Assembly (NCBI GenBank): GCA_001816585.1 | Contig: MHCJ01000003.1 | Location: forward strand, 522,681-586,680 | Length of the DNA stretch: 64,000 nt | Direction: 5' to 3' | Source of the DNA: Candidatus Chisholmbacteria bacterium RIFCSPHIGHO2_01_FULL_52_32 | Lineage (GTDB): Bacteria; Patescibacteriota; Microgenomatia; UBA1400; Chisholmbacteraceae | Shown: piece after piece, positions 10,900-64,000 of the stretch | How positions within the stretch are numbered: position 1 is the stretch's first letter | Layout: every line of letters begins with the position of its first letter | Translations under genes and position numbers: made by a program | Notes under the pieces: model-generated | The model's database searches: none | What the model saw: the letters and a program-made list of their open reading frames with translations, nothing else | Told to the model about the DNA's origin: nothing

Positions 10900-11008
10900 G
10901 AATTAAGAATTATGAATCATGAATTATGGACTGGGGATAAAATTTTCTTCTGGTTCCTTTGGATTGCTTTTACCATTATTCTTTATTCCTCATTCATTAT
11001 TCTTTTTC

Positions 11009-20381: not shown

Positions 20382-20405
20382 AGCAGGGAGAGAGAGAAGG
20401 GTCTA

Positions 20406-20478
20406 GGGGATAGGGTTTAGGGTTTAGGGTTTAGAAATTTAGATTAAAGACTTATCACTTATTCCTTATTCCTTACTC
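20406..20478 (+). repeat. ~75-bp composite repeat, copy 1: (TTTAGGG)3-like tract + TTAGATTAAAGACTTATCACTTATTCCTTATTCC; carries the probable rtcB promoter (-10 TATAAT at about 20470)
   Basis: Direct repeat of 21906-22027, which lies on the other side of rtcB. Confidence 0.7.
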
Positions 20479-21915: not shown

Positions 21916-22027
21916 GGAAATAGGGTATAGGGTTTAGGGTTTGGAGTTTAGCCCTTCGACTGCGCTCAGGACAAGGGTTTAGGAATTAAGATTAAAGACT
22001 TATCACTTATTCCTTATTCTTTAATCC
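21906..22027 (+). repeat. composite repeat, copy 2 (TTTAGGG-like tract + inserted type-E motif + TTAAGATTAAAGACTTATCACTTATTCCTTATTC)
   Basis: Same modules and orientation as 20406-20478. Confidence 0.7.
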
Positions 22028-33915: not shown

Positions 33916-34758
33916 GTGCCTCTTCAGAAAGGTGGTGAAAAAACAATGAAGCGATTTTTATTGAGCGTGTTTACGATTGCCGCGGTTGCCGGACTCGCGT
34001 TCGGCGCAACATCGGCGTTCTTCTCCGATACGGAAACGTCAACGGGGAATACATTCGCGGCAGGAGAATTGGATCTTCACATCGATAACACCAGTTATCT
34101 TAATGGAGCGCTCAATCCAGGCACTACGTGGGAGCCTTCTGATTTAACAAATCAGTTATTTTTCAATTTTCTCGATGTTAAGCCCGGAGACGAGGGTGAA
34201 GATACAGTTAGTATTCATGTTGCTGACAACGATGCTTGGGCGTGCGTGGACATCGATATCACTGAGAACGATGACGTGAGTTGTACAGAACCTGAATTGG
34301 CTGATGATGGAACTTGTGCAGAAGGAGATGGAGTGCCAGACGGTGATCTTACCGATGGTGATTTAGCAGGCGACCTTGAGTTTTTGTTCTGGACCGATGA
34401 TGGTGACAATGTGTTTGAAGACGATGAAACTCCCTTAACTCAAGGTTTGGCATCTTCGGTTCTTAACGATGTAACGTGGACTCTGGCTGATGCGGATGAA
34501 AATAACGTTGGCGGAATAGATGGGGATCCTTTGGATGGTGATACGACCTACCACATCGGAAAGGCATGGTGCTTTGGTGATCTAACCCTAGATGCAACTG
34601 CATCAGGGCAAGGTGTTAATCCAACGGTCGATCCAGGTGTTGAATGTAACGGGACTCTCGTTGATGATGCCTCGCAGTCTGACAAGTTGATGGGTGATAT
34701 CAGCTTCTACGCTGAGCAGTGGAGGAACAATCCGAATTTCCAGTGCGGGCAGGATTAA
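33916..34758 (+). CDS. TasA/camelysin (M73)-like protein with a SipW-cognate-type signal peptide, copy 1
   Basis: MKRFLLSVFTIAAVAGLAFGATSAFFSDTETSTGNTFAAGELDL; ...FFNFLDVKPGDEGEDTVSIHV. Confidence 0.6.
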   Translation: MPLQKGGEKTMKRFLLSVFTIAAVAGLAFGATSAFFSDTETSTGNTFAAGELDLHIDNTSYLNGALNPGTTWEPSDLTNQLFFNFLDVKPGDEGEDTVSIHVADNDAWACVDIDITENDDVSCTEPELADDGTCAEGDGVPDGDLTDGDLAGDLEFLFWTDDGDNVFEDDETPLTQGLASSVLNDVTWTLADADENNVGGIDGDPLDGDTTYHIGKAWCFGDLTLDATASGQGVNPTVDPGVECNGTLVDDASQSDKLMGDISFYAEQWRNNPNFQCGQD

Positions 34759-35018
34759 TTGGAGTCGGATTGATAGTTGACAAGATATTTTGTGCGATCC
34801 TCTAGCCCTTCGGCTAAGCTCAGGGTCTTAATCGATCCTCTGACTTTGCGCAAGGGTTAGAGGGTACCCCGCTGGTCGGACGCACGGCATGGGAAAGACT
34901 CAATCTTCCTTTGCTACTGCCCGGCCGGCGGGGTGCCGCCCAACTTCAGCCAACTGAAGTTGGAAAATCCGAAATCCGAAGCACGAAGCACGAAATAAAT
35001 GCTTTATGCAAGTAGGAT

Positions 35019-35885
35019 ATGTGTGGAGGTATGAAGAAGCTTTTTGTCAGCCTGGTTACGTTGGCCGCTGTGGGAGCGCTTGGTTTTGGCGCAACGCGGG
35101 CGTTCTTTTCCGACACCGAAACCAGTACGGGAAATACCTTTCAAGCCGGAGGCCTTGATTTGAAAGTCGATAGCGAGTGCCACTACTTCCAAAATAATGA
35201 GGCCATCGGCTGCGATGGCTTCGGCACATGGGGAGAAGCGGATTTGGTTCCGGGAATTCACAAATTTTTCAACTTTACGGATATCAAACCCGGTGACTAC
35301 GGAGAAGATACGCTAAGCCTTCATGTTGTCGGTAACGATGCCTGGGGGCGGCTGGTCATCGGTGATTTTCAAGATTCTGATAATACATGTCCCGAACCTG
35401 AAGAAGAAGCGGAAGGAGAACCTTGCGGGACAGAAGGGGAACTTGGGGAGAATTTACTGGTCTCTGTGTGGCTTGATCAAGGGATAAGCGTTGGATTTGG
35501 GGGAAAACCGTCCCCACAAGGAGGAGATGCGGGAGAAGGGGACAACATTCGGCAAACCCAAGAACCATTTCTGATCGCTGAGACCACGCTCGATCAGCTT
35601 CCAAGCACTATTGACCTTACTCAAGAACTTGCCGATTATCGCCAGTCTATTAGTGCCACCTGCGATTTTTATGATCCGGATGGTGACGGTCAAACCGGCG
35701 GGCCGGGATATTGTCAAGGATTGGCCACTGATGGGCGTCTTGTAGGCAGCGTTACCTACTATTTTGCGATTGCCTGGGAGCTACCGGCGAGTGTCGGAAA
35801 TGAGGTGCAGACAGATAGTGTTGGATTTGATCTTGCGTTTGAAGTAGAACAGACTCGGAATAACCCGACGCCTTTTGAGATCTAA
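35019..35885 (+). CDS. TasA/camelysin-like protein with a SipW-cognate-type signal peptide, copy 2
   Basis: MKKLFVSLVTLAAVGALGFGATRAFFSDTETSTGNTFQAGGLDL; FFNFTDIKPGDYGEDTLSLHV. Confidence 0.6.
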   Translation: MCGGMKKLFVSLVTLAAVGALGFGATRAFFSDTETSTGNTFQAGGLDLKVDSECHYFQNNEAIGCDGFGTWGEADLVPGIHKFFNFTDIKPGDYGEDTLSLHVVGNDAWGRLVIGDFQDSDNTCPEPEEEAEGEPCGTEGELGENLLVSVWLDQGISVGFGGKPSPQGGDAGEGDNIRQTQEPFLIAETTLDQLPSTIDLTQELADYRQSISATCDFYDPDGDGQTGGPGYCQGLATDGRLVGSVTYYFAIAWELPASVGNEVQTDSVGFDLAFEVEQTRNNPTPFEI

Positions 35886-37188
35886 GATCGCATCTATGAT
35901 AGATGTTTTGAAAATGAGAGTACCACTAATCAAAGGTTTTTTTGTTATTTTTCAAGTCTTTCTTGGAACCGCGATTGTTGGAACTGCGGCTCTTCTTCTG
36001 GCCGATCACTTCGGGGTGTTGGAGTTTGTCAAACCCTATGTCGTCATGTCCGGGTCGATGGAGCCGGCGGTCCGGCTTGGAAGTGTGGTGGTCGTGCGAC
36101 CGCAATCTTCCTATTCATCTAATGACGTTGTTACCTATGCCCCTAATGGAGACAAAGAAAAACCGGTCACCCACCGCATCCTGTTCAAGTCGTATCCTGA
36201 CGGCATTACCCAGGCGCCTGTTTACCTCACAAAAGGTGATGCTAATGAGGATTTCGATCGGGCTGCGGTGAGTGCAAAAGACGTTATCGGGAAGTCGCTG
36301 TTTGTAATCCCCTTTCTTGGTTATGTGGTGAATTTCGCCAAACAGCCGTATGGATTTATCTTCCTCGTGATTGTTCCGGCAACGATTGTGATTTACGAGG
36401 AATTCAAATTCCTTGGGAAAGAACTCTCTATTTTCCTCATGAACAGTTCTTCTTGGCTATCCGCCCGGATCTCTAAGAAGAACGGAATTCGTCTGCGTCG
36501 GGGGATCAATCTTCTTTCGAAACGCGAAAAGGGAGTTCCCAAAGCAGCGGCTGTTGTTCCGGTCATCGGGACGATTTTGGTTCTTTCCGCTTTCACCGGT
36601 GCGTTTTTCTCGGATACCGAGCAAAGCTCCGGGAATGTCTTCAGCGCGGCGGAGAGTTTCGGACCGCCGATTGCAAATCATCTGGTGATCAATGAAGTGT
36701 ATTACGATGTGGCACCAGGTAAAGGAGATGAAGGTGATAGTGCAAATCCAGACGAGTGGGTTGAGCTCTATAATCCTACTTCTTCACCTGTCGATATCAA
36801 AGATTGGAGTATAGGTGATGATGAGGATGGAGATAATGTCTCCTCCGCTGAAAAAATTATTCCTCCTGGAGGTTTTGCTCTTATTGCAAAAAGCAATAGC
36901 ACCTGGAATAACTGGGATGAAGATCCTGATGCGGACAAGATCCCTATCGGAGATAAGATTGGTAATGGTCTAGCCAACGCAGGTGACACAGTAATTCTCC
37001 TTGATGACAATGGAGCTGAAGTTGATCGAATGAGTTGGGGAAACGATACTTCTGGTTTCACTTCAGGTTGTGCATCCTCATGCCCTACAGTTGCTGAAGG
37101 TCACTCGTTAGAGAGAGATCCAGATGGAGTTGATACAAATACCGCTGCTGATTTTGTTGACCGCACAACTCCAACGCCAGGTACCTAA
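35875..37188 (+). CDS. sipW: ER/archaeal-type signal peptidase I (SipW, S26B) fused in frame to a C-terminal lamin-tail domain (LTD) segment that carries its own SipW-cognate-like signal motif
   Basis: S26B Ser motif VVMSGSMEP, His motif PVTHRI, TKGDANEDFD; then TM helix; then KKNGIRLRRG...AAAVVPVIGTILVLSAFTGAFFSDTEQSSGN; then LTD (LVINEVYYD...EWVELYNPT...DIKDWSI...GDTVILLD). No stop codon between the two parts. Confidence 0.65.
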   Translation: MRSKIASMIDVLKMRVPLIKGFFVIFQVFLGTAIVGTAALLLADHFGVLEFVKPYVVMSGSMEPAVRLGSVVVVRPQSSYSSNDVVTYAPNGDKEKPVTHRILFKSYPDGITQAPVYLTKGDANEDFDRAAVSAKDVIGKSLFVIPFLGYVVNFAKQPYGFIFLVIVPATIVIYEEFKFLGKELSIFLMNSSSWLSARISKKNGIRLRRGINLLSKREKGVPKAAAVVPVIGTILVLSAFTGAFFSDTEQSSGNVFSAAESFGPPIANHLVINEVYYDVAPGKGDEGDSANPDEWVELYNPTSSPVDIKDWSIGDDEDGDNVSSAEKIIPPGGFALIAKSNSTWNNWDEDPDADKIPIGDKIGNGLANAGDTVILLDDNGAEVDRMSWGNDTSGFTSGCASSCPTVAEGHSLERDPDGVDTNTAADFVDRTTPTPGT

Positions 37189-37189
37189 G

Positions 37190-38524
37190 ATGAAAAAAGC
37201 AATTAGAAAAATCCTGATTTTAATACTCGCACTAGCGGTTATTGCTCGATTCGGGAATTTCCGGCAGGAGCGTTCGAGACCCGTCTATGCCGTTGGCGAT
37301 TTGGTGATCACACATGGTGGCAATCCTCTCGGACCGCCGATTTTTACCGTGACGAATATGCTGCCTGGGGACGAGGAGTCTCAAGATGTGGTCGTCACAA
37401 ACAGCGGAACGGTCCCCCGGTTTGTGGCGGTTCGGGGCGTACGGACGGGACCTCCTGATGAGTTGGATCCGAAGTTTGAGACCGTCCTTGAGATTGTTAT
37501 CAGCGAAGGGGGAACGGATCTTTACGGCGGGACGCTCGGCACGAAGACGGTTCAGGACTTTTTCGATGACAGCACAGACCCGAACGGAATTCTTCTCTCA
37601 ATCGTCAACCCATCTGACACAACCACCTACCATTTTGAGGTTACCTTCCCTGAGTCGGGTGATAATGACTTCGATAACCAGTTTCAGGGAAAATCGGTGA
37701 TTTTCGATCTCATCTTTGGCGTTATCACCGGAGAAAGCTTAGTGATCAACGAGGTGTACTACGAAGTCGACGGGAACCACGGGGTTGATAGTCCGAAGGA
37801 CCGCGGGATCGTTTCGATTAACGGGAGGAATATAACCGTTATTATCGAAGGGAACGGGGCCGGCTCGACCAACACGGTGACTATGACGATTTCGCAGTAC
37901 TGTAATATCACCCAATCGAACAACGCTACTATTAATAATGGTGTGATTGTTATTTCTAATACCGGGGGCAACTCGGCATCCGGGAACACCGGAGGGAGTA
38001 CCTCGATCATCACCGGGGCGGCCAATGCGGTCGTCAACATCATCAACATCGCAAACCTTAATATCGGCACCTGCAACGGGAAAAAGCTCGGTCTGAACGA
38101 TGAATGGATTGAGATTTACAACCCGACGGACCACGCGATTTCCCTTAAAAACTGGCGGCTGCGGGATAATTCCGGTTCGGATACCGTGATCAACGCCAAT
38201 AAGAGCGTTCCGGCGTTTGGGTTCGCCCTGATTTCTAAGGACGCCCGGCCCTGGAGCTTCTGGAACGAGAATCCCCTGGCAAAGAAAATCGAGCTTGGGC
38301 GGCAGATCGGGGATGGCCTCGACAACGATGGGGACCATGTATACCTCAAGAAGCCGGATGGGACGGTGGTTGACGCTGTCGGCTGGGGCGATGATACGGC
38401 GGTTTGGAATCCGGCAGTACCTCTGGTTGCCTTAGGATCTTCGATCGAGCGGTTGGTTCCCGGGTTTGATTTCGATCTTGTTTCCGACTGGGATGAGCAA
38501 GCTCCTCCAACTCCCGGTATTTAG
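37190..38524 (+). CDS. secreted protein: TasA-like N-terminal region plus an LTD interrupted by a 'NTGGN...NTGG' repeat insert
   Basis: Start at MKKAIRKILILILALAV; TNMLPGDEESQDVVVTNSG; LVINEVYYEVDG...[GNGAGSTN...NTGGNSASGNTGGSTSIITGAANA...NIGTCNG]...EWIEIYNPTDHAISLKNWRL...GDHVYL. Confidence 0.55.
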   Translation: MKKAIRKILILILALAVIARFGNFRQERSRPVYAVGDLVITHGGNPLGPPIFTVTNMLPGDEESQDVVVTNSGTVPRFVAVRGVRTGPPDELDPKFETVLEIVISEGGTDLYGGTLGTKTVQDFFDDSTDPNGILLSIVNPSDTTTYHFEVTFPESGDNDFDNQFQGKSVIFDLIFGVITGESLVINEVYYEVDGNHGVDSPKDRGIVSINGRNITVIIEGNGAGSTNTVTMTISQYCNITQSNNATINNGVIVISNTGGNSASGNTGGSTSIITGAANAVVNIINIANLNIGTCNGKKLGLNDEWIEIYNPTDHAISLKNWRLRDNSGSDTVINANKSVPAFGFALISKDARPWSFWNENPLAKKIELGRQIGDGLDNDGDHVYLKKPDGTVVDAVGWGDDTAVWNPAVPLVALGSSIERLVPGFDFDLVSDWDEQAPPTPGI

Positions 38525-38615: not shown

Positions 38616-39173
38616 CTAGAGGAGGGCGGCAAAGGATGAGGCGGGTTTGGCGATGATGATCAGGCGTTGGGATTTTTGCGCTCCCGTGCAAGTAAGGAGC
38701 GTGAGGCGTTCGTCGGCTGTCTGTGCAATGACCCCGACCTCGGCCGGGCTGACAACGCGGATCGCGGAAACAAGATAACTTTTTGTTTTCCCTTCTCCCT
38801 CGATGAAGACCCGATCGCCAAGAAAAACTTTCTCAAGCGGTCCGAAGAAGTCTTCGGTATTGTGCGCATATATCACCGCGTTTCCCCATTCTCCAGGTTT
38901 GGCACTGGTTGCGAGGTAGGAGGCGGCATCCGGGAAGAACTCATAGCTTCCCGCTTGGCTTGCTGCTGACTTGAGTTGCAGATCAAGGTTCGTTTTTGGA
39001 ATGTATATCCTTTCCGGGGTGACAATGACCCTTTGGTGGTACTCGTGGGTTGGGGCTTGCACCAAGAGCGGGGCAAATTGGCTCTCGACCGGCTGAGGGT
39101 TTTGTCCAAACAGCGAGGCAAGGCTCATCCCGGCAAACGTGGCGATGGTGGCAACGAGCAATGGTATCTTCAT
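38616..39173 (-). CDS. sortase family transpeptidase (sortase 2)
   Basis: N-terminal TM helix; VIYAHNTEDFFGPL; TLxTC motif LTLLTC. Confidence 0.65.
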   Translation of the reverse strand: MKIPLLVATIATFAGMSLASLFGQNPQPVESQFAPLLVQAPTHEYHQRVIVTPERIYIPKTNLDLQLKSAASQAGSYEFFPDAASYLATSAKPGEWGNAVIYAHNTEDFFGPLEKVFLGDRVFIEGEGKTKSYLVSAIRVVSPAEVGVIAQTADERLTLLTCTGAQKSQRLIIIAKPASSFAALL

Positions 39174-39332
39174 GACTTCCTTTATAAAAAGGACTCCTAG
39201 TGGGAATCCTTGCGGCCTATACTATCCTTTCTCCCTTCGTTGTCAAGTCTGTACAGGTGCGACCTGTACGCGCAGTTTTTCCTGGCATTCATTCTCTCTG
39301 TACAGGTCGCACCTGTACGGTACAATGGGCAT

Positions 39333-39992
39333 ATGCCCGCAAAGTACACAGTCAAGATGTATGTTGAAAACGGTTATTATCATCTCCTCAACAGAGGGGT
39401 GGATAAACGATCTATTTTCTTCGATAAGAAAGATTCCGTCACCTTTCTGTCTCTTCTTAAGCGCTACCTTACTAATCCTGACCTTCTCCCACCTGAACTT
39501 CAGTTTCTCCGCCCGTCGCGCAGGTCGCACCTGTACGAGCAGATAACGCTCGTTGCCTACTGCCTTATGCCAAACCACTTTCACCTACTTGTAAGGCAGA
39601 AATCCAGGAACGCCATCACTGAATTCGCCCGTTGCCTCATGAACTCCTATGTCCGGCACTTTAATGACCGCCACGAGCGAGTAGGTCCTCTCTTCCAAGG
39701 AAGAATCAAGGGGATACTGGTGGATAATGATTCCTACCTCCTCCATTTGACACGATATATCCACCGCAATCCGGAAGAGTTTTGGGAACGTTCTCTTCGA
39801 GATTACCCGTATTCAAGCTATGCTGAGTATCTTGGTCTTCGAAGTACCTCTTGGATTCATCCGGAAGCGATTCTTGCCTATTTCAGATCACCCCTAAATA
39901 AAAGTCTGCATGATTATTTTTCCTACGAAAGCTTCGTCGAGGAATCAAAAGACGATTCGTCTGAGATCCTTAAGGAGATCACCCTCGAATAG
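39333..39992 (+). CDS. REP-associated tyrosine transposase (RAYT; IS200/IS605-like Y1 HuH transposase, transposase_17 type)
   Basis: YYHLLNRG...FFD (N-terminal motif), HuH motif AYCLMPNHFHLL, catalytic Tyr region YLLHLTRYIHRNP, DYPYSSY. Start at Met42 of the track ORF because the upstream in-frame residues are REP sequence. Flanked by REP doublets. Confidence 0.8.
   Translation: MPAKYTVKMYVENGYYHLLNRGVDKRSIFFDKKDSVTFLSLLKRYLTNPDLLPPELQFLRPSRRSHLYEQITLVAYCLMPNHFHLLVRQKSRNAITEFARCLMNSYVRHFNDRHERVGPLFQGRIKGILVDNDSYLLHLTRYIHRNPEEFWERSLRDYPYSSYAEYLGLRSTSWIHPEAILAYFRSPLNKSLHDYFSYESFVEESKDDSSEILKEITLE
39520..39536. repeat. REP-like copy inside the rayT coding sequence (GCAGGTCGCACCTGTAC, inverted orientation, 17 of 19 positions)
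   Basis: In frame it encodes RRSHLYE within a variable region of the RAYT, just upstream of the HuH motif. Confidence 0.6.
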
Positions 39993-40067
39993 CACCTCCG
40001 TACAGGTGCGACCTGTACGGTGTGTACGGGTGCGACCTGTACATGCGTGTTCTTTTGCTACCACTTG

Positions 40068-40583
40068 TTAGGGGACGAGGAGCTTCTTGACGGGGCTGGT
40101 TTTGGAGGACTTTCCACCGATATCGAATCCTCCGCTTCCCGGTTCATAGTCAGAAATGTAGATACCACTGCTATCTTTGTCCCAGCAATGAACCAATAGG
40201 CTTGAGAAGGAACTGTAATATGTACCAATTTCTTGGTTTACATCTGACCGGAAGATTTTTATCCATTTGGTTCTCATTCTTTGGCCATTTTCTATATCAA
40301 TATAATAATTCTTATCTGGAGAGTAAACGGGAAAGGGCCAATCCAGTGATGTTTGAGGGTAGATTTGTCTTGTCTCAGCACATACTTCTTTCAAAGAAAC
40401 TCCTAGCTCGGAAAGATTTGCCCACTTGAGTGTTGATCTGGGAGTATTACTCCACCACATTACTAGCACTAGAGCTGTAAGTATGAAACCTAAACTTAAA
40501 ATCTTCCATCTGTTTCTCCGTATTAGTGACGTTATATTTTTTCGTGACATGGAATGTGAGGTAAATATTCTATGGCCTTTCAA
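40068..40583 (-). CDS. small membrane-anchored protein, paralog 1 (partner of the lipase-like gene)
   Basis: N-terminal TM helix; C-terminus ...DYEPGSGGFDIGGKSSKTSPVKKLLVP is almost identical at the nucleotide level to the 3' end of 61128..61628. Confidence 0.5.
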   Translation of the reverse strand: MKGHRIFTSHSMSRKNITSLIRRNRWKILSLGFILTALVLVMWWSNTPRSTLKWANLSELGVSLKEVCAETRQIYPQTSLDWPFPVYSPDKNYYIDIENGQRMRTKWIKIFRSDVNQEIGTYYSSFSSLLVHCWDKDSSGIYISDYEPGSGGFDIGGKSSKTSPVKKLLVP

Positions 40584-40613
40584 GATGATGTTATCAGCTC
40601 GAGATATTCCAGG

Positions 40614-43600
40614 TCAATCCCCTACAATAAAGATTACATTAGCATCAAGCTCATGACCAAATTCAGATACACCTATCAGGTAAGTCTTGCCAGACTTAAA
40701 GTTGTAATCGCGAAGATGAAGATTAACGATGTAGTGTTGTTTGTCTGCGTCAATTCGTATGACATCGCTTTTCCCATGCAGACCTGGATTTTCCATTGAA
40801 AGGAATGCAATGGCCGAAGAGGGATTGCTCGGATCAACGACCCAAACCTGCACACTCTCATCTTCAGCAAATCTTCCTTCAGCATCACGAATGGTGAACT
40901 TGATGGGAAGGGTCGCATTGCGTGAAACTCTCGGCGGTTTATCCGGATCATTTAACGGTGAGTCCCATTGGATACTTAATGGAGCCGTGGGAAGACTAGC
41001 TCGATTATATGTAGCCGTATGCTCATGAATGTCTCCTGGTGAGGTGGTCCCTGTGAATTCTGCGAAGGTAAGAATGCCTGCGTCACTAAGCGCTTGTACT
41101 AGTACCATGTAATTTCCTTCCTCTACTCCTAGTAACTTGATTGTGTATTCTCCCTCCAAGGGATCCGGGATGAAGATGAAGTCCGGCTCATTAACCTCAA
41201 TTGATCTACTGAACAATGTTCCCGGAATTTCTGATAGTTCCTCACCTGTATTAAAATCAAGGCCCACTCGTCTTCCCAGAGGATCGGTTATCTGAATTTC
41301 CACCGGCGAGAGAATAATGAACCCTAAAGCAGCCTCATGCAAATTGATGCCCGGATCAACAAAGCCGGCGTTAAAAAATGGTCGTGTCTTCGTTAAGAGC
41401 TCTACAATGCTTTGTTGGAGTTGGGTCGGCAAGTGTCCATGCTCAATAATCGATGTATTATCTGCACTCAGATAATACCGGGGCACGAGACGAGTATCGA
41501 TGAAGCTTAGATCAGCGCTCGCTGTTGGTACGGTTTTATCTCCTCTTCCCAGTGGACGAAAATCTCTGCCTTTTAATACCTTTCCGTTCTGCCATATGCC
41601 ATAAATATCATCTAGAAGGTTGCGCCCCACGACTTTGTACAATTTGTCAGTATCCTCAAGTGGACGTTCATTCTCATAGCGATCTCCGACTACAGAAATC
41701 ACATTGTTTCCTCCTAACCGATTAATGAGAACTACTATATTTTCATTGAGTGAGGTCAAGAATTCATTTATCTGATGCCCGAATGGGTAAATCGAGTTTA
41801 AATTATCTGCGGCGACAAGATACCCTCCGGGATCATCCCTCAAATACTCATCCACTGGAAAAAGTTCTCGGATACTCGGCACCTTATCTTTAATGTATTG
41901 GTAGAGATCAGTCTTCGTGGTGAAGCAGAGCTTTGTGAGGTCGGTACAGTACCCTTTCTTCCTCGCTAGAGCGCGGAGTAACCATTCCGCAAGAATCTTT
42001 CCTTTATCGCCGACGATATCATCGAAGAAATCAAATTCCAGACCTTCTGCCGCCAGGTACGCTTTCGGTGCACCAAGGTGGGGTGTTCCTAGCGTGATCA
42101 GCCGATGGACATCTCCCGTGTATGAATCGCCTTGGACGTAGGCGCGGGACACAAGCCCGCCAAGACTGTGCCCAACAAGATCCACGGAAGAGGAGTCCAC
42201 GTACTCCGACACTGATGCTTTTGGAAGCATTGAGCTTCGTATTGCAATGCCTAACTCGCCTCCTGACTTGGAAATGTGCTGTCTCCAGTCATACGGGAAT
42301 GTGAATAGGCTTTGATCAACTTCGTACCCAGCAAATTGTAATTCTTCGAGAAGATTGTTATATGTACCGAGGATAGGATCTATAGTCCATTGTCCAAAAG
42401 CATTTTTCATCGAACCCAGTAGGCCGGGAATAACTACCACCGGATGGATTCGGGCAGTTGGGATAATCATGGTTTCTTGATCGACGCCGAGGATTTCTCC
42501 GTTTGAATCATTAAACATTTTCGCGGTAACGAGAATGGTTTGCCCCGACATCGGCTGAATCCACATCGGCCACATTATTGGGAGGGACTGACCGGGATTT
42601 AACCTTAATGCTCGTCTTAGTATCGCTGGTGGCTCGAGGAGCGTTCCATTATCTTCAAAGAGCAGGCGACTGGGATTTGAGAACGAGACTTCGAGATCCC
42701 CCACCATAATGGCAGATCCCGTATTTGACACACTCACTCGTACTTCCGTGGGATTCTGTGCATACCAACCATCTTCATTGAGCGTGAGTTCGTGCGGTAC
42801 AGCGACATCGACGATTGGACCAGAACCTAATGGTGCGGTGGTGGAGAAGAAAATATCCCAGCTGGTACCTTCGATTTCCTCCATCCAAACAGCATAGGCG
42901 TAGCCCTGTCCATCCATGGCCACATCGGGGGCAAGTTTGCGACGTGTCAGGTCAGGAGTAACGAGAGTGTTCGGACTCCAGGTTCCATCTGCCTCCCTAT
43001 ATGTAGAGTAGATCTCATAGGAATCAGGGAGAACAGTGATGAGGTTATCCGCCCAGACCACAACGGCCTCCCCGGCAGGAGTGACGGCAATTGCCGAAAA
43101 ATCACGGAAGCCATTTTGGGCGTCGCTGACTTGACTGATCGGATCCCATGCTCCACTCGCGTTCCGCTTGCGGAAGGCAATCTCCCAGTCCGGAGTGGCT
43201 TGTGTCCAAACCACATAGGAATTCGCGGAGGCGTCAATTCCGACATCGGGGTTTTGGCCGAAAGCGGTGGAGACGGGTTCGTTCGCTCCCCAAGAATCTC
43301 CTTGTGGACGATGGGAGAAATAGATCTGCTGGAGTCTATTGCGCAGATCGGTCCAAACTACAGCCGCATTCCCGCCCTGATCGACAGTAAGGGAGGGCCC
43401 GCGTGTACCGCTCGTGATCACGGACCCCGGGACATCGTTGACTAGTGTATCAGTTCCCCAGTTTCCTCCATGGGGTCGGTAGTCGAAAAAGAGGTCTTGA
43501 AAATCAGTAGAATCGGGAGGATTCCGCCGATCATACCAAGCAGCATAGGCATTTCCCGCAGGATCAACGGCAATATCCGCATAGGGCTGGGCTTGGGCAT

Positions 43601-44036
43601 CGGGATCGGTTACCTGTTCCCGAACGAGGGTTTCCGTGGCCCAGCCTCCCCCGGCAGGAAGAAAGACAAACCAGAGTTTCCCAAAGCTTTCCCAAAGCAC
43701 ATAGGCATTCCCGCCTGCGTCCACGGCGATACTCGGTTCGTCGCCGACCGTTAAGGCATCGTTCACCTGTACTTCCGATCCCCAATTCCCTCCCGCAGGA
43801 CGGTAATCCACGTAGATGTCAAAGTGATTACTATTTCGCTTATCCATCCAGACCGCGTAGGCGTTGCCCGCCCCATCAACCGTAACTGAAATTGCCGGAT
43901 ACCACTGCTCGGCAGGTCCAAGGTCATCATTCACTCGGACCTTGGGGCTCCAAACAGGGTCGGCGGCATGGGCAGAGGGAGTAAAAAAGAAAAAAGGGAG
44001 GAAAAAGAGAAGTGTGAAGATGCATCGGCGGATCAT
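40614..44036 (-). CDS. large secreted protein: 7-bladed beta-propeller (xGNAYxVW repeats) + PGAP1-like alpha/beta-hydrolase (lipase/esterase, GHSLGG) + C-terminal beta-sandwich domains; paralog 1
   Basis: Signal peptide; repeats DGAGNAYAVWMDKRN x7; VVVIPGLLGS...LVGHSLGGLVSRAY...LITLGTPHLGAPKA. Confidence 0.7.
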   Translation of the reverse strand: MIRRCIFTLLFFLPFFFFTPSAHAADPVWSPKVRVNDDLGPAEQWYPAISVTVDGAGNAYAVWMDKRNSNHFDIYVDYRPAGGNWGSEVQVNDALTVGDEPSIAVDAGGNAYVLWESFGKLWFVFLPAGGGWATETLVREQVTDPDAQAQPYADIAVDPAGNAYAAWYDRRNPPDSTDFQDLFFDYRPHGGNWGTDTLVNDVPGSVITSGTRGPSLTVDQGGNAAVVWTDLRNRLQQIYFSHRPQGDSWGANEPVSTAFGQNPDVGIDASANSYVVWTQATPDWEIAFRKRNASGAWDPISQVSDAQNGFRDFSAIAVTPAGEAVVVWADNLITVLPDSYEIYSTYREADGTWSPNTLVTPDLTRRKLAPDVAMDGQGYAYAVWMEEIEGTSWDIFFSTTAPLGSGPIVDVAVPHELTLNEDGWYAQNPTEVRVSVSNTGSAIMVGDLEVSFSNPSRLLFEDNGTLLEPPAILRRALRLNPGQSLPIMWPMWIQPMSGQTILVTAKMFNDSNGEILGVDQETMIIPTARIHPVVVIPGLLGSMKNAFGQWTIDPILGTYNNLLEELQFAGYEVDQSLFTFPYDWRQHISKSGGELGIAIRSSMLPKASVSEYVDSSSVDLVGHSLGGLVSRAYVQGDSYTGDVHRLITLGTPHLGAPKAYLAAEGLEFDFFDDIVGDKGKILAEWLLRALARKKGYCTDLTKLCFTTKTDLYQYIKDKVPSIRELFPVDEYLRDDPGGYLVAADNLNSIYPFGHQINEFLTSLNENIVVLINRLGGNNVISVVGDRYENERPLEDTDKLYKVVGRNLLDDIYGIWQNGKVLKGRDFRPLGRGDKTVPTASADLSFIDTRLVPRYYLSADNTSIIEHGHLPTQLQQSIVELLTKTRPFFNAGFVDPGINLHEAALGFIILSPVEIQITDPLGRRVGLDFNTGEELSEIPGTLFSRSIEVNEPDFIFIPDPLEGEYTIKLLGVEEGNYMVLVQALSDAGILTFAEFTGTTSPGDIHEHTATYNRASLPTAPLSIQWDSPLNDPDKPPRVSRNATLPIKFTIRDAEGRFAEDESVQVWVVDPSNPSSAIAFLSMENPGLHGKSDVIRIDADKQHYIVNLHLRDYNFKSGKTYLIGVSEFGHELDANVIFIVGD

Positions 44037-44123: not shown

Positions 44124-44142
44124 ATACAGGTGCGACCTGTAC
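44124..44142. repeat. REP element (ATACAGGTGCGACCTGTAC; extended palindrome CATATATACAGG...CCTGTACATGG)
   Basis: Seen directly, in the 245-bp gap between the lipase-like gene start and the PIG-L gene. Confidence 0.75.
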
Positions 44143-51340: not shown

Positions 51341-51372
51341 AATAATTTCAGTTAAAAGTTTAAAGTGAAAAG

Positions 51373-52005
51373 TTAAAAGTTATCCACCCTCTCAGCAAAG
51401 ACCAGGAGGCGTTTGAGGGCGGTACCGATAGGGGTGCAGGTTTGGAGAACTAGTTGGTTTCGCTTTTGCTCCGTTAAGTACTTCACTTCGTTTGGCCAAA
51501 CTGTTTTTTTCTCGCGGACACGGTAGACAATATCCTTTCCCTTATACGTCACAATGATTTGATCACCCTCTTTTACCCTTCCGAGGCGGAAGAAGGCGGT
51601 GTTGTAGCGGGTCATGCGCCACGGGAGATCGGAAGAGTGGGCAAAAAGATACATCAAACCGGATTGGTTGGGAACGGCCGAGCCGGTGGCATGAGCAACC
51701 CCGTTTTTCAGCGCTTCTACGTAGAGCCTTTGGTTCCAGGGATCTACGTTTTCGACCACAGGGCTGTTGATTCCGATCGTCGGGATACGGATATTGAAAA
51801 CTTCTGAAGTTGCAGTTTGTGTGATGACATTTGTTGTTCTATATGTATACTCTTCCTTGATGATAGGGAAAAATATAATAAGCGCAAAAACCATAGACAA
51901 CCCCATGAGAACGTTGCCTATGGTTGAAAGAGTTTGAGGGGTTCTTTTGCTGGTCTTTCCCATGATAGAAGGGTGAATTGTAGAAGAAGTGAAGCGAAAA
52001 AGCAA
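51373..52005 (-). CDS. sortase family transpeptidase (sortase 3; paralog of 23482..24093)
   Basis: TM helix; ...NGVAHATGSAVPNQSGLMYLFAHSS...LVLQTCTP. Confidence 0.65.
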   Translation of the reverse strand: MLFRFTSSTIHPSIMGKTSKRTPQTLSTIGNVLMGLSMVFALIIFFPIIKEEYTYRTTNVITQTATSEVFNIRIPTIGINSPVVENVDPWNQRLYVEALKNGVAHATGSAVPNQSGLMYLFAHSSDLPWRMTRYNTAFFRLGRVKEGDQIIVTYKGKDIVYRVREKKTVWPNEVKYLTEQKRNQLVLQTCTPIGTALKRLLVFAERVDNF

Positions 52006-53174: not shown

Positions 53175-53234
53175 GTTAGTTGCTTGTAGCTTGTAGCTTG
53201 TAGTCCTTCGACTTTGCTCAGGACAAGTGCTTTC

Positions 53235-55433: not shown

Positions 55434-55506
55434 GGTTATGAATAAAGAATTATGAATGATGAATTATGAATCAACTTTTAACTTTTCACTTTACACTTTT
55501 AATTTG
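55434..55506. repeat. composite intergenic repeat: type B (GAATTATGAATGATGAATTATGAATC) + type A (inverted)
   Basis: Type B also occurs at 10897-10929, 58661-58682 and 58720-58756. Confidence 0.6.
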
Positions 55507-55574
55507 ATATTCCCTTGGGCTGTGGGGCCCCGCAAATAGCTTCGTCAGCGGGGCTCCCACAAACCCATAAGGAT

Positions 55575-58056: not shown

Positions 58057-58809
58057 TCTTTGGGAAAGTATGTCCAAGCGTTCTCGAATGGAGGATTTTC
58101 GAACCGTTTGGGTCAGCGGAGTAAAGAAAGCGGTAACACCGAGTTTGATTTGGGCCCAACTGACACGGAATCCGTTTGTGGCAAACGGTATACCTTGCAA
58201 AGTTTCTGAAGATGTTAATTTTCTTTGCATATAAAAAACCCTCTCTTACAAGCAGGGCACTTCATTATCTTAAAGTATGCGTATACTACCCGAAAGCGCA
58301 TTGGCTTGTCAATAGAGCAGATTTTTCATTGTTCAATTGCTACATTGTTCTATTGTTACAGAACTGACCACTTCTTTACTTGTCTAAAGTTTTATGCCCA
58401 TTCTTTGTTCGTCCAAAGAATGGGCTAAGAAAGGACGCCCTGTGAAGCCTTGCCGGCGATTCCTCTGGCTCGACGGTGGGAGCCCTTCGGCTTCGCTCAG
58501 GGCATTTCATTACCCTCGGAAATTCACCGCTAGCTGGCGGTTCAGTTTCCGTATCCCACTCGTCTCGCCCTCGAATCGCAACTGCAGCGGCTTCAAAAGG
58601 GAGAGAGAACTCTTAGGTGAATTCTTCTTGAAGAAATTGTTCAAAGGGGTTTCTAATTCGTAATTCATGATTCATAATTCTTTCTTTTGGCTGCGTTCAA
58701 AGGTGTCTTTGCATCATCCATAATTCATGATTCATAATTCATGATCCGTGATTTCTAAACACTCTATGTTTGATCAATAATGATGAAGCTCAAAAGGAGA
58801 AACGAAGGT

Positions 58810-60909: not shown

Positions 60910-61086
60910 GTACAGGTCCGACCTGTACAGCGCATATTATATGGCTTTTTGCTCTTACGTACAGGTGCGACCTGTATATCGGCGCCCACACAGCTTATCT
61001 CAAACGTCTCTATCTATGCGACGATCGAAAGCAGTTAACGACATATCCAGGCTAAGCGTCCGGGCATGTACGGGTGCGACCTGTAC
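60910..61086. repeat. cluster of three REP copies (60910-60928 spacer variant TCCGA; 60959-60977; 61068-61086 GTACGGG variant)
   Basis: Between the S8 protease start and the stop of the paralog-2 small gene. Confidence 0.8.
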
Positions 61087-61127
61087 ATGTACCGTACTGG
61101 GAATTGTTGCGAAGCCTCCAAACCGGG

Positions 61128-61628
61128 CTATGGAACAAGGAGTTTTTTGACGGGGCTGGTTTTGGATGACTTTCCACCGATAACGAAGATACTTCCGCTT
61201 CCCGGTTCATAGTCAGCTACGTATATTCCGGAGCTGTCCTCTGCCCAACAATAGATGACAAAGTCAGAGTAGTCACTAAAATATGTTCCAGTATATGTGT
61301 TTGTATTTATATTGAAAAGCTTAATGGCTTTACTTTGGCCGAAGTAAGCATTTTCCAAATCTATAGAGTACTGCTTATTTGGAGAGAAAAGCGGGAAGAG
61401 TTGGTCAGGTCCGGGATATACAGCATATCGAGCCTTGCAAATTTCTTCGACAACCGTCGGCGCCTTCTCGTTTTGGTTTTCCCAGATAAGCGTGGATGTT
61501 GGAAAAAAGATTCGGAAGCGAATGATTACGCTAATACTTAACAACACAACAATCGCCGAGATGATAGTTATCACTACAATCATAACGCTCTTTTTTCCTA
61601 TGAAATTTGCTGAGTTCTTAATGACCAT
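61128..61628 (-). CDS. small membrane-anchored protein, paralog 2
   Basis: Same architecture as 40068..40583 and the same C-terminal ...DYEPGSGSIFVIGGKSSKTSPVKKLLVP. Confidence 0.5.
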   Translation of the reverse strand: MVIKNSANFIGKKSVMIVVITIISAIVVLLSISVIIRFRIFFPTSTLIWENQNEKAPTVVEEICKARYAVYPGPDQLFPLFSPNKQYSIDLENAYFGQSKAIKLFNINTNTYTGTYFSDYSDFVIYCWAEDSSGIYVADYEPGSGSIFVIGGKSSKTSPVKKLLVP

Positions 61629-61778: not shown

Positions 61779-64000
61779 TTAGTCACTCTTCGATTGAACA
61801 CTGATTCCCCGCCCCTCGAATTCTTGACCCAATAGACCAACTTCAACGACATATGTCTTCCCAGTCTCAAAGTTAAAATCGGGAAGATGAAGATTAACAA
61901 TATAGTGTTGTTCGGTCGCGTCTATTCGTATGACATCGCTTTTCCCTTGCAAACTTGTTTCTTCCATTGAAAAGGCTGCGACGACCGAAGAAGGATCGTT
62001 TGAATCTATGACCCAGACCTGCACACTCTTATCTTCGACAAATCCTCCCTCGGCATCACGAATTGTGAACTTGATGGGAAGGGTGGATTTTAGCGTAACT
62101 TTACGGGGTTCATCCGGATTATTCAACGGTGGGTACCATTGGATATTCAGCGGAGCTATGGGCAGACTAGCTCGATTATAGACAGCTGTATGTTCATGAG
62201 TACCTCCTGGTGAAGTGGCCCCTGTGAATTCTACGATGGTTAGATAACCTTCCTCACTGAATGCTTGTACTTGCACCGTGTAATTCCCATAATCTATTCC
62301 TTGTAAGTTGATCGTGTATGCTCCTTCCAAGGGTTCCGGGATGAGAATAAAGTCCGGCTCATTAGCCTCGTTTGAACGGCTAAATAATGCCCCTGGAATC
62401 TCTGGGAGTTCCTCACCCGTATTAAAATCAAGACCCGTTCGTCTTCCCAGTGGATCGGTTATCTGAATTTCCACCGGCGACAAATTGATGAACCCTAAAG
62501 CTGCTTCGTGCAAATTGATGCCCGGATCGACAAAGCCGGCGTTAAAAAATGGACGGGAGATCGTTAAGTGCTCTAGTACGCTCTGCTGAAGTTGGGAGGG
62601 CATGTGTTGATGTGTGATGATTGAGCCATCATCACTCTGAGTTTTGTGCTCTGCCTGCATTCGCTCATCAAATAGACTGAGGTCAGCACTTGACAATGGA
62701 ACTGTTTCGTCACCAGGGCCTATCTCTCGAAATTCTCTTCCCTGCTTTACTTTCCCGTTAGTCCATAATCTCAATTGAGATTCTATGAAGTTACGTTCTA
62801 CTACCCTATAGAATGAGGGCGTATCTCTCTGTGGTCGATCTCCTATAAACGAAATCACATTGTTCCCTCCTAGCCGATCAATGAGAACTTCAATATTTTC
62901 ATTTAGTGAGGTCAAAAACTCATTCATCTGATGACCGAATGGGTAAATCGTTGTCGGTTCATTAGTGGAAATAAGGTACCCCCCAGGATCATTCTCTAAA
63001 TACTCATCCACTGGAAAAAGTTCCCGGATGCTCGACACCTTGTCTTCAATGTATCTGTAGAGATCTGTTTTAGTAGTTAAGCAAATTTTTATTAAGTCGG
63101 TGCAGTACCCATTTTTCCGGGCAAGACTGCGGATTAAAACATCTGCTAATATTTTCCCTACCTCGCCAGTATCATCGAAAAAATCAAACTCTAAGCCTTC
63201 TGCTACTAAATACGCTTTCGGTGCACCAAGGTGAGGTGTTCCAAGCGTAATTAACCGATGCACGTTACCCGTGTATGTGTCGCTCTGGACGTATGCCCGA
63301 GATACCAGCCCTCCGAGACTATGCCCAACAAGATCTACCGAGGAGGAGTTGATATATTCCTTCGATGCGGCTACCGGAAGTATTTTCGTTTTGATTGAAA
63401 CACCAAGCTCGTTTCCTGACTCTGAAATATGTTGCCGCCAATCGTATGGGAATGTGAATAGACTTGTATCTTTTTCATAACCAGCAAATTGTAGTTCTTC
63501 AAGGAGATTGTCATATGTACCAGCGACGGGATCTATTGTCCACTGTCCAAAAGCATTTTTCATTGAACCCAGAAGGCCGGGAATGACTACCACCGGGTGG
63601 ATTTGGGCGGTTGGGACGATCATGCTGTCTTCATCTTCGGCGATGACTTCTCCGCTTGAATCATTAAACAGTTTCGCGGTAACGAGAATAGTTTGTCCTG
63701 ACATCGGCTGAATCCACATCGGCCAGACTAAAGGCAGAGATTGGCCGGGTTGCAAGTTTATTGATCGCCGTAATATAGCCGGCGGCTCGATGAGGGTGTC
63801 ATTATATTCAAAGAGCAAGCGATCGGGATTTGAAAACGAAACAACGATAGTACCCAGCGCAGAAACTGATCCCGTATTTGACACATTGACCCGCACCTCA
63901 GCCGGATTCTGCGCATACCAGCCGCTGTCATTCAGCGTGAGTTCGTGCGGGACATCGACATCAACGACGATTGGAGCGGAGGCCGCGGTGGTGGAGAAGA
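61779..64000 (-). CDS. beta-propeller/PGAP1-like alpha/beta-hydrolase protein, paralog 2; N-terminus (propeller) lies beyond the window end
   Basis: The track ORF starts at a GTG at 63896, but the upstream frame stays open to the window end and aligns to paralog 1 (..VDVDVPHELTLNDSGWYAQNPAEVRVNVSNTG..). Also VVVIPGLLGS...GHSLGG...TPHLGAPKA. Confidence 0.7.
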   Translation of the reverse strand, partial: FSTTAASAPIVVDVDVPHELTLNDSGWYAQNPAEVRVNVSNTGSVSALGTIVVSFSNPDRLLFEYNDTLIEPPAILRRSINLQPGQSLPLVWPMWIQPMSGQTILVTAKLFNDSSGEVIAEDEDSMIVPTAQIHPVVVIPGLLGSMKNAFGQWTIDPVAGTYDNLLEELQFAGYEKDTSLFTFPYDWRQHISESGNELGVSIKTKILPVAASKEYINSSSVDLVGHSLGGLVSRAYVQSDTYTGNVHRLITLGTPHLGAPKAYLVAEGLEFDFFDDTGEVGKILADVLIRSLARKNGYCTDLIKICLTTKTDLYRYIEDKVSSIRELFPVDEYLENDPGGYLISTNEPTTIYPFGHQMNEFLTSLNENIEVLIDRLGGNNVISFIGDRPQRDTPSFYRVVERNFIESQLRLWTNGKVKQGREFREIGPGDETVPLSSADLSLFDERMQAEHKTQSDDGSIITHQHMPSQLQQSVLEHLTISRPFFNAGFVDPGINLHEAALGFINLSPVEIQITDPLGRRTGLDFNTGEELPEIPGALFSRSNEANEPDFILIPEPLEGAYTINLQGIDYGNYTVQVQAFSEEGYLTIVEFTGATSPGGTHEHTAVYNRASLPIAPLNIQWYPPLNNPDEPRKVTLKSTLPIKFTIRDAEGGFVEDKSVQVWVIDSNDPSSVVAAFSMEETSLQGKSDVIRIDATEQHYIVNLHLPDFNFETGKTYVVEVGLLGQEFEGRGISVQSKSD

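Follow-up and report, generated by a model that had tools for sequence, protein, structure and literature searches.

A duplicated gene pair encoding a PGAP1/LCAT-type hydrolase and a small membrane protein in a Patescibacterium: a candidate enzyme and self-protection module

We describe a rare two-gene module that occurs twice in the 64,000-nucleotide stretch of DNA from an uncultured, ultra-small Patescibacterium (CPR) analysed here (the window), in which a large serine hydrolase with a Sec-type leader is followed directly by a small, predicted membrane protein of a previously undescribed family. The reading that we favour, at a probability of roughly 0.45, is that the module pairs a Sec-exported enzyme, used as a weapon or harvester, with a cognate self-protection (immunity) protein. 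Three other roles for the small protein are weighed below where the evidence touches them.

The two modules and their REP neighbourhood

Both modules have the large gene followed by the small gene, in the same orientation. The features of this region are:

40614..44036, minus strand: module 1 large gene, an ORF of 1140 aa (Pfam PGAP1/LCAT, AF2 model, homologs)
40068..40583, minus strand: module 1 small gene; 171 aa if read from TTG 40583, probably 160 aa with ATG 40550 as the start
61779..64000, minus strand: 3' two-thirds of the module 2 large gene, whose ORF continues past the end of the window
61128..61628, minus strand: module 2 small gene, an ORF of 166 aa
40000-40018 and 40024-40042, plus strand: REP doublet, 3' of small gene 1, with a GTACGGGT variant as its proximal element (40024-40042)
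60910-60928, 60959-60977 and 61068-61086, plus strand: REP triplet, 3' of small gene 2, with the same GTACGGGT variant as its proximal element (61068-61086)
44124..44142, plus strand: REP upstream of the module 1 large gene (REP scan)
39210..39992, plus strand: REP-associated tyrosine transposase (RAYT) gene, probable start ATG 39333, flanked by REPs

The initial annotation had proposed a duplicated module of constant architecture and orientation, and this stands: the large paralogs are 71% identical over the 742 aligned residues in the window and 75% at full length (1141 aa for the module-2 protein, as read from a 100%-identical 484-kb contig, L003), and the small paralogs are 47% identical over 147 residues. 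Alignment with the module-2 small protein suggests that translation of the module-1 small gene may begin with ATG 40550 instead of TTG 40583. The search for further copies suggested by that annotation, when run across the window, returned only these two; we propose that they are old duplicates, module 2 being a second copy in the same genome that is non-syntenic with module 1.

REP sites (GTACAGGTGCGACCTGTAC; stem GTACAGGT/ACCTGTAC with a 3-nt loop) number 16 in the window, with 0 expected by chance. As first annotated, clusters of them adjoin both small-gene 3' ends (the doublet at 40000-40042 and the triplet at 60910-61086), and the proximal REP of the triplet lies in a 23-nt stretch (61067-61089) identical to 40023-45. 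The RAYT gene is flanked by REPs at 39251, 39300, 40000 and 40024; its product scores 30.8 bits against Pfam Y1_Tnp (cut-off 23) and 37.5 against NCBIfam REP_Tyr_transpos, below that model's cut-off of 80, and so represents a divergent member. With short, imperfect palindromes that are dispersed, cluster between genes and lie far above chance, and with a REP-flanked Y1 (IS200-like) transposase gene, the region contains a REP/RAYT system. Related genomes also keep the RAYT next to the module, with homologs and cognate, diverged REPs at two related loci (L002 and L008).

The small-gene 3' ends had been noted as nearly identical, and this had been read as a sign of recombination or gene conversion at the REP-adjacent ends of the modules. 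The near-identity is clear (88% of nucleotides over 59 nt, and 82-83% in 60-nt windows, versus ~50% over the remainder of the genes; the GGKSSKTSPVKKLLVP tail is the same in both proteins), and the strongly mosaic synonymous divergence between the modules does indicate gene conversion. Most of the conversion signal, however, falls within the 5' third of each large gene, where the propeller is encoded, rather than at the REP-adjacent ends. We largely reject the tail as a REP-linked conversion tract, since the (S/G)PVKKLLVP motif is found family-wide, including in relatives from other organisms, and the spacer between the small-gene stop codon and the nearest REP shows no homology between the modules; judged from these alignments, the identical tail is mainly a conserved motif of the family. 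A short excess of synonymous identity remains there (1/19 versus 32/51 codons, in a tract chosen post hoc). The regions upstream of the two large genes likewise show no homology. Scans for promoter and terminator consensus sequences around both modules performed no better than on shuffled sequence, except that REP hairpins scored as terminators, and Rfam and tRNA scans of the window were empty.

The hydrolase and its membrane partner

The large protein of module 1 is laid out as follows:

aa 1-24, minus strand: Sec-type leader, read by eye from the sequence
42801..43949 (aa 30-412), minus strand: seven-blade beta-propeller head, lectin- or sialidase-like (motifs, AF2, Foldseek)
42462..42749 (aa 430-525), minus strand: Ig-like beta-sandwich linker domain (AF2 secondary structure; conserved in homologs)
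41337..42449 (aa 530-900), minus strand: alpha/beta-hydrolase domain (Pfam, triad, PDB profile matches)
42165-42167, minus strand: Ser624 codon, checked, in GHSLGG
41538-41540, minus strand: Asp833 codon, checked, in GDxTVP
41439-41441, minus strand: His866 codon, checked
41361..41720 (aa 773-892), minus strand: most diverged segment between the large paralogs, which includes the Asp and His loops (nucleotide and amino-acid identity in sliding windows)
40620..41336 (aa 901-1139), minus strand: two C-terminal beta-sandwich domains (AF2 pLDDT 80-88)

Blade motifs, Pfam matches and AF2 models bear out the architecture first described, namely a seven-blade propeller, a GHSLGG/TPHLG hydrolase core and C-terminal beta-sandwiches. 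Seven blade motifs are present, the AF2 model of residues 30-400 has a pLDDT of ~90, and Foldseek matches the head to seven-blade lectins of Photorhabdus (TM 0.70). The head is exchangeable in relatives, one homolog (L019) carrying a PQQ-type propeller in its place, and in every related locus the C-terminal beta-sandwiches precede the small gene. The large protein contains neither an LPXTG motif nor a transmembrane anchor.

Profile searches proposed for the hydrolase placed PGAP1 (PF07819) above its gathering threshold (41.7 bits, cut-off 24.3), together with LCAT (PF02450; 40.6 bits, cut-off 21) and Palm_thioest (30.3 bits, cut-off 26.8), all spanning the GHSLGG/TPHLG core. Loss of the catalytic residues had been named as grounds for abandoning the proposed effector/immunity pair; Ser624, Asp833 and His866 are all in place and invariant in 6 homologs, down to 24% identity, and the GxSxG nucleophile elbow reads GHSLGG in the module-1 protein and AHSQGG in L019. 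By these sequence matches the large protein is a PGAP1/LCAT-type serine hydrolase whose predicted Ser-Asp-His triad is intact. Against the PDB, the best profile match was Bacillus subtilis LipA (9e-13), and others included family I.1/I.2 lipases (~2e-9), the T6SS effector Tle4 (4r1d_A; E=3.8e-6, a local match over ~80 residues around the nucleophile that is weaker than those to LipA and the family I lipases), PGAP1 (1.5e-5), LCAT, LPLA2 (2e-5), the PHB depolymerase PhaZ7 and plain esterases. Between the large paralogs, identity falls to 45-55% over residues 773-892, around Asp833 and His866. The half of the hydrolase that would form the interface with a partner (aa 651-900) is modelled with a pLDDT of 25-50.

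The small protein is predicted to comprise an N-in transmembrane anchor and an ectodomain of ~120 aa with two conserved cysteines and a PVKKLLVP end. The AF2 model consists of one transmembrane helix followed by beta strands that form a partial beta-propeller, predicting a type-II membrane protein with its ectodomain on the outer face of the membrane; one subfamily carries a second, C-terminal transmembrane helix. Searches with 14 members gave no Pfam match at E<=5, and no PDB relative was found; this covers Tli, Lif and every other Pfam or PDB family. A word-indexed protein search returned 5 relatives and missed the copy at L002, and it was an exhaustive HMM search of 1.84 billion proteins that revealed the family, with ~35 representatives. 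The small-protein alignment found no relative among 185,579 species-representative genomes. We conclude that this is a new, previously undescribed family with a predicted partial-propeller fold.

Conservation of the pair and the role of the small protein

The annotation had held that its pairing would fail if adjacency were not conserved in other genomes. On at least 10 independent metagenomic contigs, a homolog of the large gene has the small gene directly 3' of it, with small-protein identity down to ~27% (pairs are found twice in the window and at L001, L002, L008/9, L011, L012, L014, L016, L017, L018, L019, L021 and L025). The association tracks the core of Ig, hydrolase and C-terminal domains rather than the propeller, because L019 has a different one. 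Adjacency could nevertheless reflect co-inheritance within a narrow lineage, the small protein serving an unrelated envelope function and the large protein being a nutritional esterase. The family is tiny and seemingly confined to related uncultured organisms, and several loci are syntenic (PIG-L, sortase, RAYT), so that shared ancestry inflates the number of independent observations. We nonetheless find this very unlikely, as adjacency is kept at 27-35% small-protein identity and across gaps of 7-150 nt; it also holds on contigs that lack synteny, where the propeller head has been exchanged, and for the second copy in this genome, which is not syntenic with the first.

Several further patterns suggest an immunity function, which is the best supported of the roles that we infer for the small protein, if tentatively so. 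In addition to conserved adjacency, these sequence patterns include tandem arrays of 2-3 diverged small genes (L008/9, L010, L015, L020), small genes with no lipase gene (L005, L023) and orphan C-terminal fragments of the large gene (L015, L022, L024), the count of lone and orphan small genes being uncertain because the metagenomic contigs are short. The small protein also evolves faster than the enzyme (mean distance 0.60 versus 0.40-0.52 over 9 pairs). A distant lipase homolog (L027) has an unrelated small protein with four transmembrane segments at the same position, overlapping the lipase stop codon, which looks like non-homologous replacement; finding different proteins at one position is common for immunity genes. 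The divergence of the enzyme around Asp833 and His866 and the predicted N-in/C-out topology with two conserved cysteines would fit the same role. By analogy, so would two precedents: the immunity protein Tsi1 is a 'fragmented beta-propeller' with a conserved disulfide (PMC3391265), and Tle4/TplE, a PGAP1-like lipase effector, is paired with a dedicated immunity protein (PMC6099711).

If immunity is the correct reading, the large protein would use the Sec pathway for export (as its leader suggests), its lectin-like propeller would bind a foreign cell surface, and its PGAP1/LCAT-type domain would hydrolyse ester bonds of lipids or lipid-like putative substrates. The small protein would sit in the producer's membrane with its partial-propeller ectodomain outside, bind the core of the cognate enzyme and neutralise it at the producer's own membrane. 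Gene conversion would keep the propeller-coding parts nearly identical, with the Asp/His-loop region and the small protein diverging together, a pattern that might be expected of two specificity variants. Counting against immunity, a Sec-secreted, diffusible enzyme is not obviously in need of it, and many secreted lipases have no immunity protein; PhaZ7 and plain esterases are among the PDB matches; the part of the hydrolase that would contact the partner is poorly modelled; and mirror-tree correlations with the small protein, taken region by region along the large protein, were equivocal, the Pearson coefficient being highest for aa 773-892 and the Spearman coefficient not.

A further point against immunity, by analogy, is that an N-terminally anchored protein encoded right after a lipase gene is also the arrangement of lipase-specific foldases (Lif). 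The small protein might then be a membrane-anchored foldase or activator, acting as the enzyme leaves the Sec channel, a role that we regard as unlikely. Gene order and N-terminal anchor topology match lipA-lif operons, the Lif-requiring family I.1/I.2 lipases are among the best PDB matches of the hydrolase, and a partner that diverges together with its cognate enzyme is equally expected of a steric chaperone. However, the small protein matches neither Lipase_chap nor any other Pfam family, its modelled beta partial propeller differs from the Lif fold, which is all-helical, and neither tandem sets of 2-3 diverged copies nor solitary small genes nor orphan fragments would be expected for a foldase acting one to one. 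Activation by a partner has a precedent in that a bona fide Tli can be needed for activation of its Tle (bioRxiv 10.1101/2023.03.28.534661).

Alternatively, the small protein could be a surface tether or docking receptor that holds the secreted enzyme on the cell, for instance at the zone of host contact, which we regard as rather unlikely. The large protein has no anchor of its own although sortases and surface proteins abound in the neighbourhood, the small protein combines a single anchor with a predicted fold of a protein-binding type, and its subfamily with a second C-terminal transmembrane helix would be in keeping with such a role. A tether would not readily account for several diverged copies behind a single enzyme gene, nor for small genes that stand alone. 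Docking by propeller-blade complementation is excluded: the large propeller already has 7 blades, and L019, with its PQQ-type propeller, keeps the partner.

Significance and comparison with known systems

Abundant and for the most part uncultured, Patescibacteria live as epibionts and reportedly have no lipid synthesis; lysolipid enrichment has been reported for CPR cells, and their lipids have been suggested to derive from other bacteria (PMC7242380). The module might be part of the long-sought machinery by which these lipid auxotrophs get membrane lipids, an idea that we consider unlikely. The lectin-headed enzyme would act as a phospholipase or transacylase that cuts host phospholipids to lysolipids and fatty acids at the contact site, and the anchored partial-propeller protein would protect the membrane that the epibiont derives from its host, or accept the products. 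If true, this would connect the module to the lysolipid enrichment of CPR cells (PMC7242380); the family is rare and narrow in distribution, and so unlikely to represent a general CPR mechanism. If immunity is correct, the pair would give Patescibacteria a Sec-dependent form of the lipase effector/immunity theme, with no specialised secretion system. It would likewise establish the small proteins as a new family with a predicted partial-propeller fold. Tests of both proteins could be run in heterologous hosts, with no need for a culture of the organism, and the two copies in one genome, with a homogenised targeting head and a diverged catalytic side and partner, constitute a natural test of cognate specificity.

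The initial annotation had likened the module to Tle/Tli pairs, and that comparison fails as a classification: the module belongs to a Patescibacterium, its enzyme carries a Sec-type leader, the window contains no T6SS or T7SS Pfam family (the T6SS scan covered 39 of its ORFs), and the small protein has no homology to Tli1-5. Membership of the lipase/Lif class is rejected as well, the 14 small-protein members searched giving no Lipase_chap match and the model being beta-rich rather than helical.

Among the closest known systems are Tse1-Tsi1 (a T6SS amidase and its immunity protein) and Tle4/TplE-Tli4 (a Pseudomonas aeruginosa T6SS phospholipase effector of the PGAP1-like group and its immunity protein; PDB 4R1D). 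The module differs from the latter in having no T6SS in the window, an enzyme with a Sec leader, and a small protein related to Tli4 neither in sequence nor in fold. To our knowledge Tle4 has no propeller, Ig or beta-sandwich domains. These additions to the module enzyme lie outside the description of Tle4, and what the two systems share is a GxSxG PGAP1-like serine hydrolase and a cognate small gene directly downstream whose product faces the compartment of the enzyme (PMC6099711; by predicted topology here). Lipase/Lif operons (family I.1/I.2; PDB 2ES4) likewise place the gene of an N-terminally membrane-anchored partner after a lipase gene, but the module's partner is roughly half as large as Lif, has a beta-rich model and no Lipase_chap match, and occurs in arrays and as lone copies. 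B. subtilis LipA and other class-2 lipases, PGAP1 and LCAT/LPLA2 share the catalytic core by profile, with alignment only over the N-terminal half of the fold; we link no dedicated downstream membrane partner to them here, and they do not have the propeller, Ig and beta-sandwich architecture. In comparison with CDI/Rhs-type polymorphic toxin loci, the variable segment of the module is internal rather than a swapped C-terminal toxin cassette, its orphan fragments are conserved C-terminal domains with neither variable segment nor toxin tip, and neither a dedicated secretion system nor a recombination motif was identified. The module does share with those loci a partial 5' homogenisation between paralogs, a catalytic-side segment and a partner that have both diverged, partner genes in tandem, and orphaned 3' pieces of the large gene.

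Architecture of the duplicated module

The two-gene module is real and well defined. As the initial annotation had claimed, two pairs of a large (lipase-type) and a small (membrane protein) gene, identical in orientation and architecture, lie on the minus strand:

40614–44036, minus strand, module 1 large ORF (1140 aa)
40068–40583, minus strand, module 1 small ORF (171 aa)
61779 through the window end (open), minus strand, module 2 large ORF (ORF call)
61128–61628, minus strand, module 2 small ORF (166 aa)

The full length of the second large protein, 1141 aa, can be read from a public 484-kb contig (L003) whose overlap with the window is 100% identical. The large proteins share 71% identity over the 742 residues within the window (75% over their full length) and the small proteins 47%; no third copy was found within the 64-kb window.

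The large protein begins with a hydrophobic leader ending in AHA|AD (read directly from the sequence), followed by seven blade motifs that form a propeller in the AF2 model with high confidence (pLDDT about 90), in agreement with the seven-bladed propeller first described. The nearest structural neighbors of this propeller are seven-bladed Photorhabdus lectins (TM 0.70), and then sialidases. An Ig-like domain (aa 430–525) separates the propeller from an alpha/beta hydrolase, and the C-terminus comprises two beta-sandwiches, also noted initially and confidently modeled by AF2. The annotated hydrolase core was borne out by Pfam, where the PGAP1, LCAT and Palm_thioest scores all exceed their thresholds, and its catalytic residues are present: Ser624 (within GHSLGG), Asp833 and His866 are invariant in six of six homologs, down to 24% identity. 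Profile searches of the PDB matched B. subtilis LipA best (9e-13), followed by Burkholderia and Pseudomonas family I lipases (about 2e-9) and further by Tle4 (4r1d, 3.8e-6), PGAP1, LPLA2/LCAT and PhaZ7, with all matches confined to the nucleophile half of the fold; aa 651–900 are poorly modeled by AF2. The large protein contains no LPXTG motif or membrane anchor.

The small protein consists of a basic N-terminus, one transmembrane (TM) helix and an ectodomain of about 120 residues, which is predicted to face outward from the positive-inside bias of the helix. That this protein acts as a surface tether seems rather improbable. Its family-wide motifs are STL, a Cys, FPxxSPDGxYY, CWAxDSSGxY and a terminal (S/G)PVKKLLVP strand. 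No sequence relatives were found in Pfam, NCBIfam or the PDB, and when 1.84 billion representative proteins were searched exhaustively by HMM, only 35 family members came up; in one subfamily the protein carries a second TM helix and an additional Cys-rich extension. The family is genuinely undescribed.

Divergence between the copies and the adjacent REP/RAYT system

DNA identity between the two large genes is mostly 70–90%, and synonymous differences are distributed unevenly along them.

Synonymous-difference fraction among codons for identical residues, module 1 versus module 2
Propeller, aa 95–353: 15%, with identical runs up to 75 nt
aa 573–712: 52%
Remainder of the large gene, aa 394–1140: about 37%

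For the propeller against the remainder of the gene, Fisher's test gives p=4e-10, and this regional mosaic is best explained by gene conversion homogenizing the large genes over their 5′ third. The large paralogs are least alike in amino-acid sequence (45–55% identity) at aa 773–892, around Asp833 and His866, and the small protein is likewise among the least-conserved parts. The small genes are, as first observed, diverged overall (∼50% DNA identity) but nearly identical at their 3′ ends (82–88% in the final 60–90 nt). A 21-codon tract, chosen post hoc, contains synonymous differences at 1 of 19 codons as compared to 32 of 51 elsewhere (p about 1e-5). Since family members from other organisms have the same tail as protein but with 39–74% synonymous differences, it is chiefly a family motif, to which a short conversion tract may at most have been added. 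Of the conversion at REP-adjacent module ends that the initial annotation proposed, conversion between the modules thus stands, for the 5′ third of the large genes, and any REP-mediated conversion of the ends is hypothetical.

The REP, a short dispersed palindrome (GTACAGGTGCGACCTGTAC), occurs at 16 sites in the 64 kb, versus 0 expected by chance:

REP sites: 12837, 13928, 14588, 31831, 38541, 38590, 39251, 39300, 39518, 40000, 40024, 44124, 51324, 60910, 60959, 61068
39210–39992 (probable start 39333), RAYT (REP-associated tyrosine transposase) ORF, Y1 transposase with REPs on either side
12870–13862, minus strand, Fic/DOC-domain gene (Pfam 3.6e-20) with REPs at 12837 and 13928 on either side

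Small gene 1 is followed after 25 nt by a REP doublet and small gene 2 by a triplet, and a single REP precedes large gene 1. The GTACGGGT variant is confined to the two REPs closest to the small genes, which have 23 identical nt in common, suggesting that the REP was part of the duplicated unit. From stop codon to REP the two modules are unrelated in sequence, and the same is true upstream of the large genes. The REPs at 39251 and 39300 fall inside a mechanically called 5′ extension of the RAYT frame, so that the ATG at 39333 is its probable true start, and a REP-like sequence with two mismatches (39518–39536) lies within the reading frame.

The gene order in related genomes is PIG-L, sortase, RAYT, large gene, small gene, with the RAYT on the other side of the module; REP/RAYT has therefore stayed close to the module, with some local rearrangement. 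The REPs of these genomes are variants of their own that share the core CAGGTNNGACCTG; they lie at 3203, 9223, 9927 and 19963 in L002 and at 1588, 1635, 7512, 8091, 8768, 11224 and 11659 in L008, where one copy directly follows a small gene. The system in this Patescibacteria genome is a complete REP/RAYT system, and the RAYT homologs together with the diverged REPs suggest that REP and RAYT co-evolve in this lineage.

Other intergenic repeats are also present. Three families of short AT-rich repeats with a period of roughly 7/14 nt (AGTTAAAAGT..., ATGAATTA... and TAGGGTT...) occur at 976–1023, 51350–51383, 55473–55510; 10884–10928, 55438–55482, 58656–58754; and 20390–20448, 21921–21951, some of them flanking genes such as RtcB. 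A dispersed element of about 22–32 nt, AGCCCTTCGGCTxxGCTCAGGG (21949–21980, 34804–34825, 53201–53232 and 58480–58511), may be a hairpin or terminator.

Conservation of the pair and its neighborhood

In tblastn searches with domain-wise queries, the small gene was found directly 3′ of the large-homolog C-terminal domains wherever upstream sequence was available (contigs L001, L002, L008/9, L011, L012, L014, L016, L017, L018, L019 and L021). Adjacency to the lipase gene, on which the pairing proposed at the outset depended, is kept in all loci with available upstream sequence but L005 and L023, where the small gene occurs without a lipase gene; a distant two-TM subfamily in L025 keeps it across a 7-nt gap. 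Mere co-inheritance as the source of this adjacency appears very unlikely.

In L019 a PQQ/BamB-type propeller (Beta-prop_ACSF4, 4e-52; L019 1–700) replaces the PDIAV/SBBP-type one, while the Ig domain, hydrolase (AHSQGG), beta-sandwiches and small gene are retained. What is conserved is therefore the small protein together with the enzyme core, whereas the propeller, a putative targeting head, is exchangeable and has been shuffled onto a constant core. In L008/9, L010, L015 and L020, two or three diverged small genes stand in tandem. Orphan 3′ fragments of the large gene, which begin at the catalytic-His region or span the last beta-sandwich only, directly follow small genes (L015 1886–2323, L022 909–1352, L024 237–680) and are leftovers of recombination between tandem modules. 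L027 holds a distant PGAP1/LCAT lipase homolog (28% identity) whose downstream neighbor (7132–7533) encodes an unrelated 133-aa protein with four hydrophobic helices; this neighbor overlaps the lipase stop codon, and its product may be a non-homologous partner at the small gene's position.

Among named sequences, those closest to a ClpC-like protein encoded on the same contig belong to the 'Patescibacteria group' (64% identity), then to Daviesbacteria and Microgenomates. The loci related to the module were sampled from soils and from small-cell filter fractions of groundwater. Surface and secreted functions are abundant in the window (three sortases, LTD proteins, M73 and M10 peptidases, an S8 subtilase); Pfam scans of the window ORFs found no T6SS or T7SS families. 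The cell-surface genes include two lamin-tail-domain (LTD) proteins, two camelysin-like (M73) proteins and a 1690-aa giant protein with seven SpaA_2 domains and DUF11, and L001, L002 and L008 are partly syntenic with this neighborhood:

25050–30122, 38616–39173 and 51373–52005, minus strand, dense cell-surface neighborhood
35875–38524 and 33916–35885, plus strand, dense cell-surface neighborhood
59393–60775, minus strand, S8 subtilase adjoining module 2 downstream (fervidolysin-type prodomain; long Thr/Pro-rich C-terminal linker, whose repeat gives spurious ORFs on both strands)

Putative function and comparison with known systems

We consider a secreted, surface-targeted lipase-type enzyme with a putative cognate, membrane-anchored protector the best fit, at a probability of roughly 0.45. 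As the enzyme's cognate partner, the small protein would protect the producer at the membrane. This reading is favored by the tight and deeply conserved adjacency to the catalytic core, by the faster evolution of the partner together with enzyme divergence near the active site, by the occurrence of partner genes in arrays or on their own and of orphan fragments, and by the predicted outward-facing topology of the partner. It also has precedents, one structural (Tsi1, whose fold is a fragmented propeller and whose disulfide is conserved; PMC3391265) and one enzymatic (the PGAP1-like Tle4/TplE, which comes with an immunity protein; PMC6099711).

A role of the small protein as a foldase or activator resembling Lif (lipase-specific foldase) would be consistent with the ability of a Tli to also activate its Tle (bioRxiv 10.1101/2023.03.28.534661), and we regard it as unlikely. 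Membership of the module among lipase/Lif pairs was rejected by membership tests. CPR bacteria reportedly have no lipid synthesis and show an enrichment in lysolipids (PMC7242380), so that the module could conceivably harvest host lipids, a doubtful proposal.

The initial annotation likened the pair to Tle/Tli, the T6SS lipase effector/immunity pairs. Membership tests rejected this assignment, with no T6SS family in the window, and the lineage is probably one without a T6SS. The putative function that we infer for the protector pair would extend the lipase effector/immunity theme to such a lineage.
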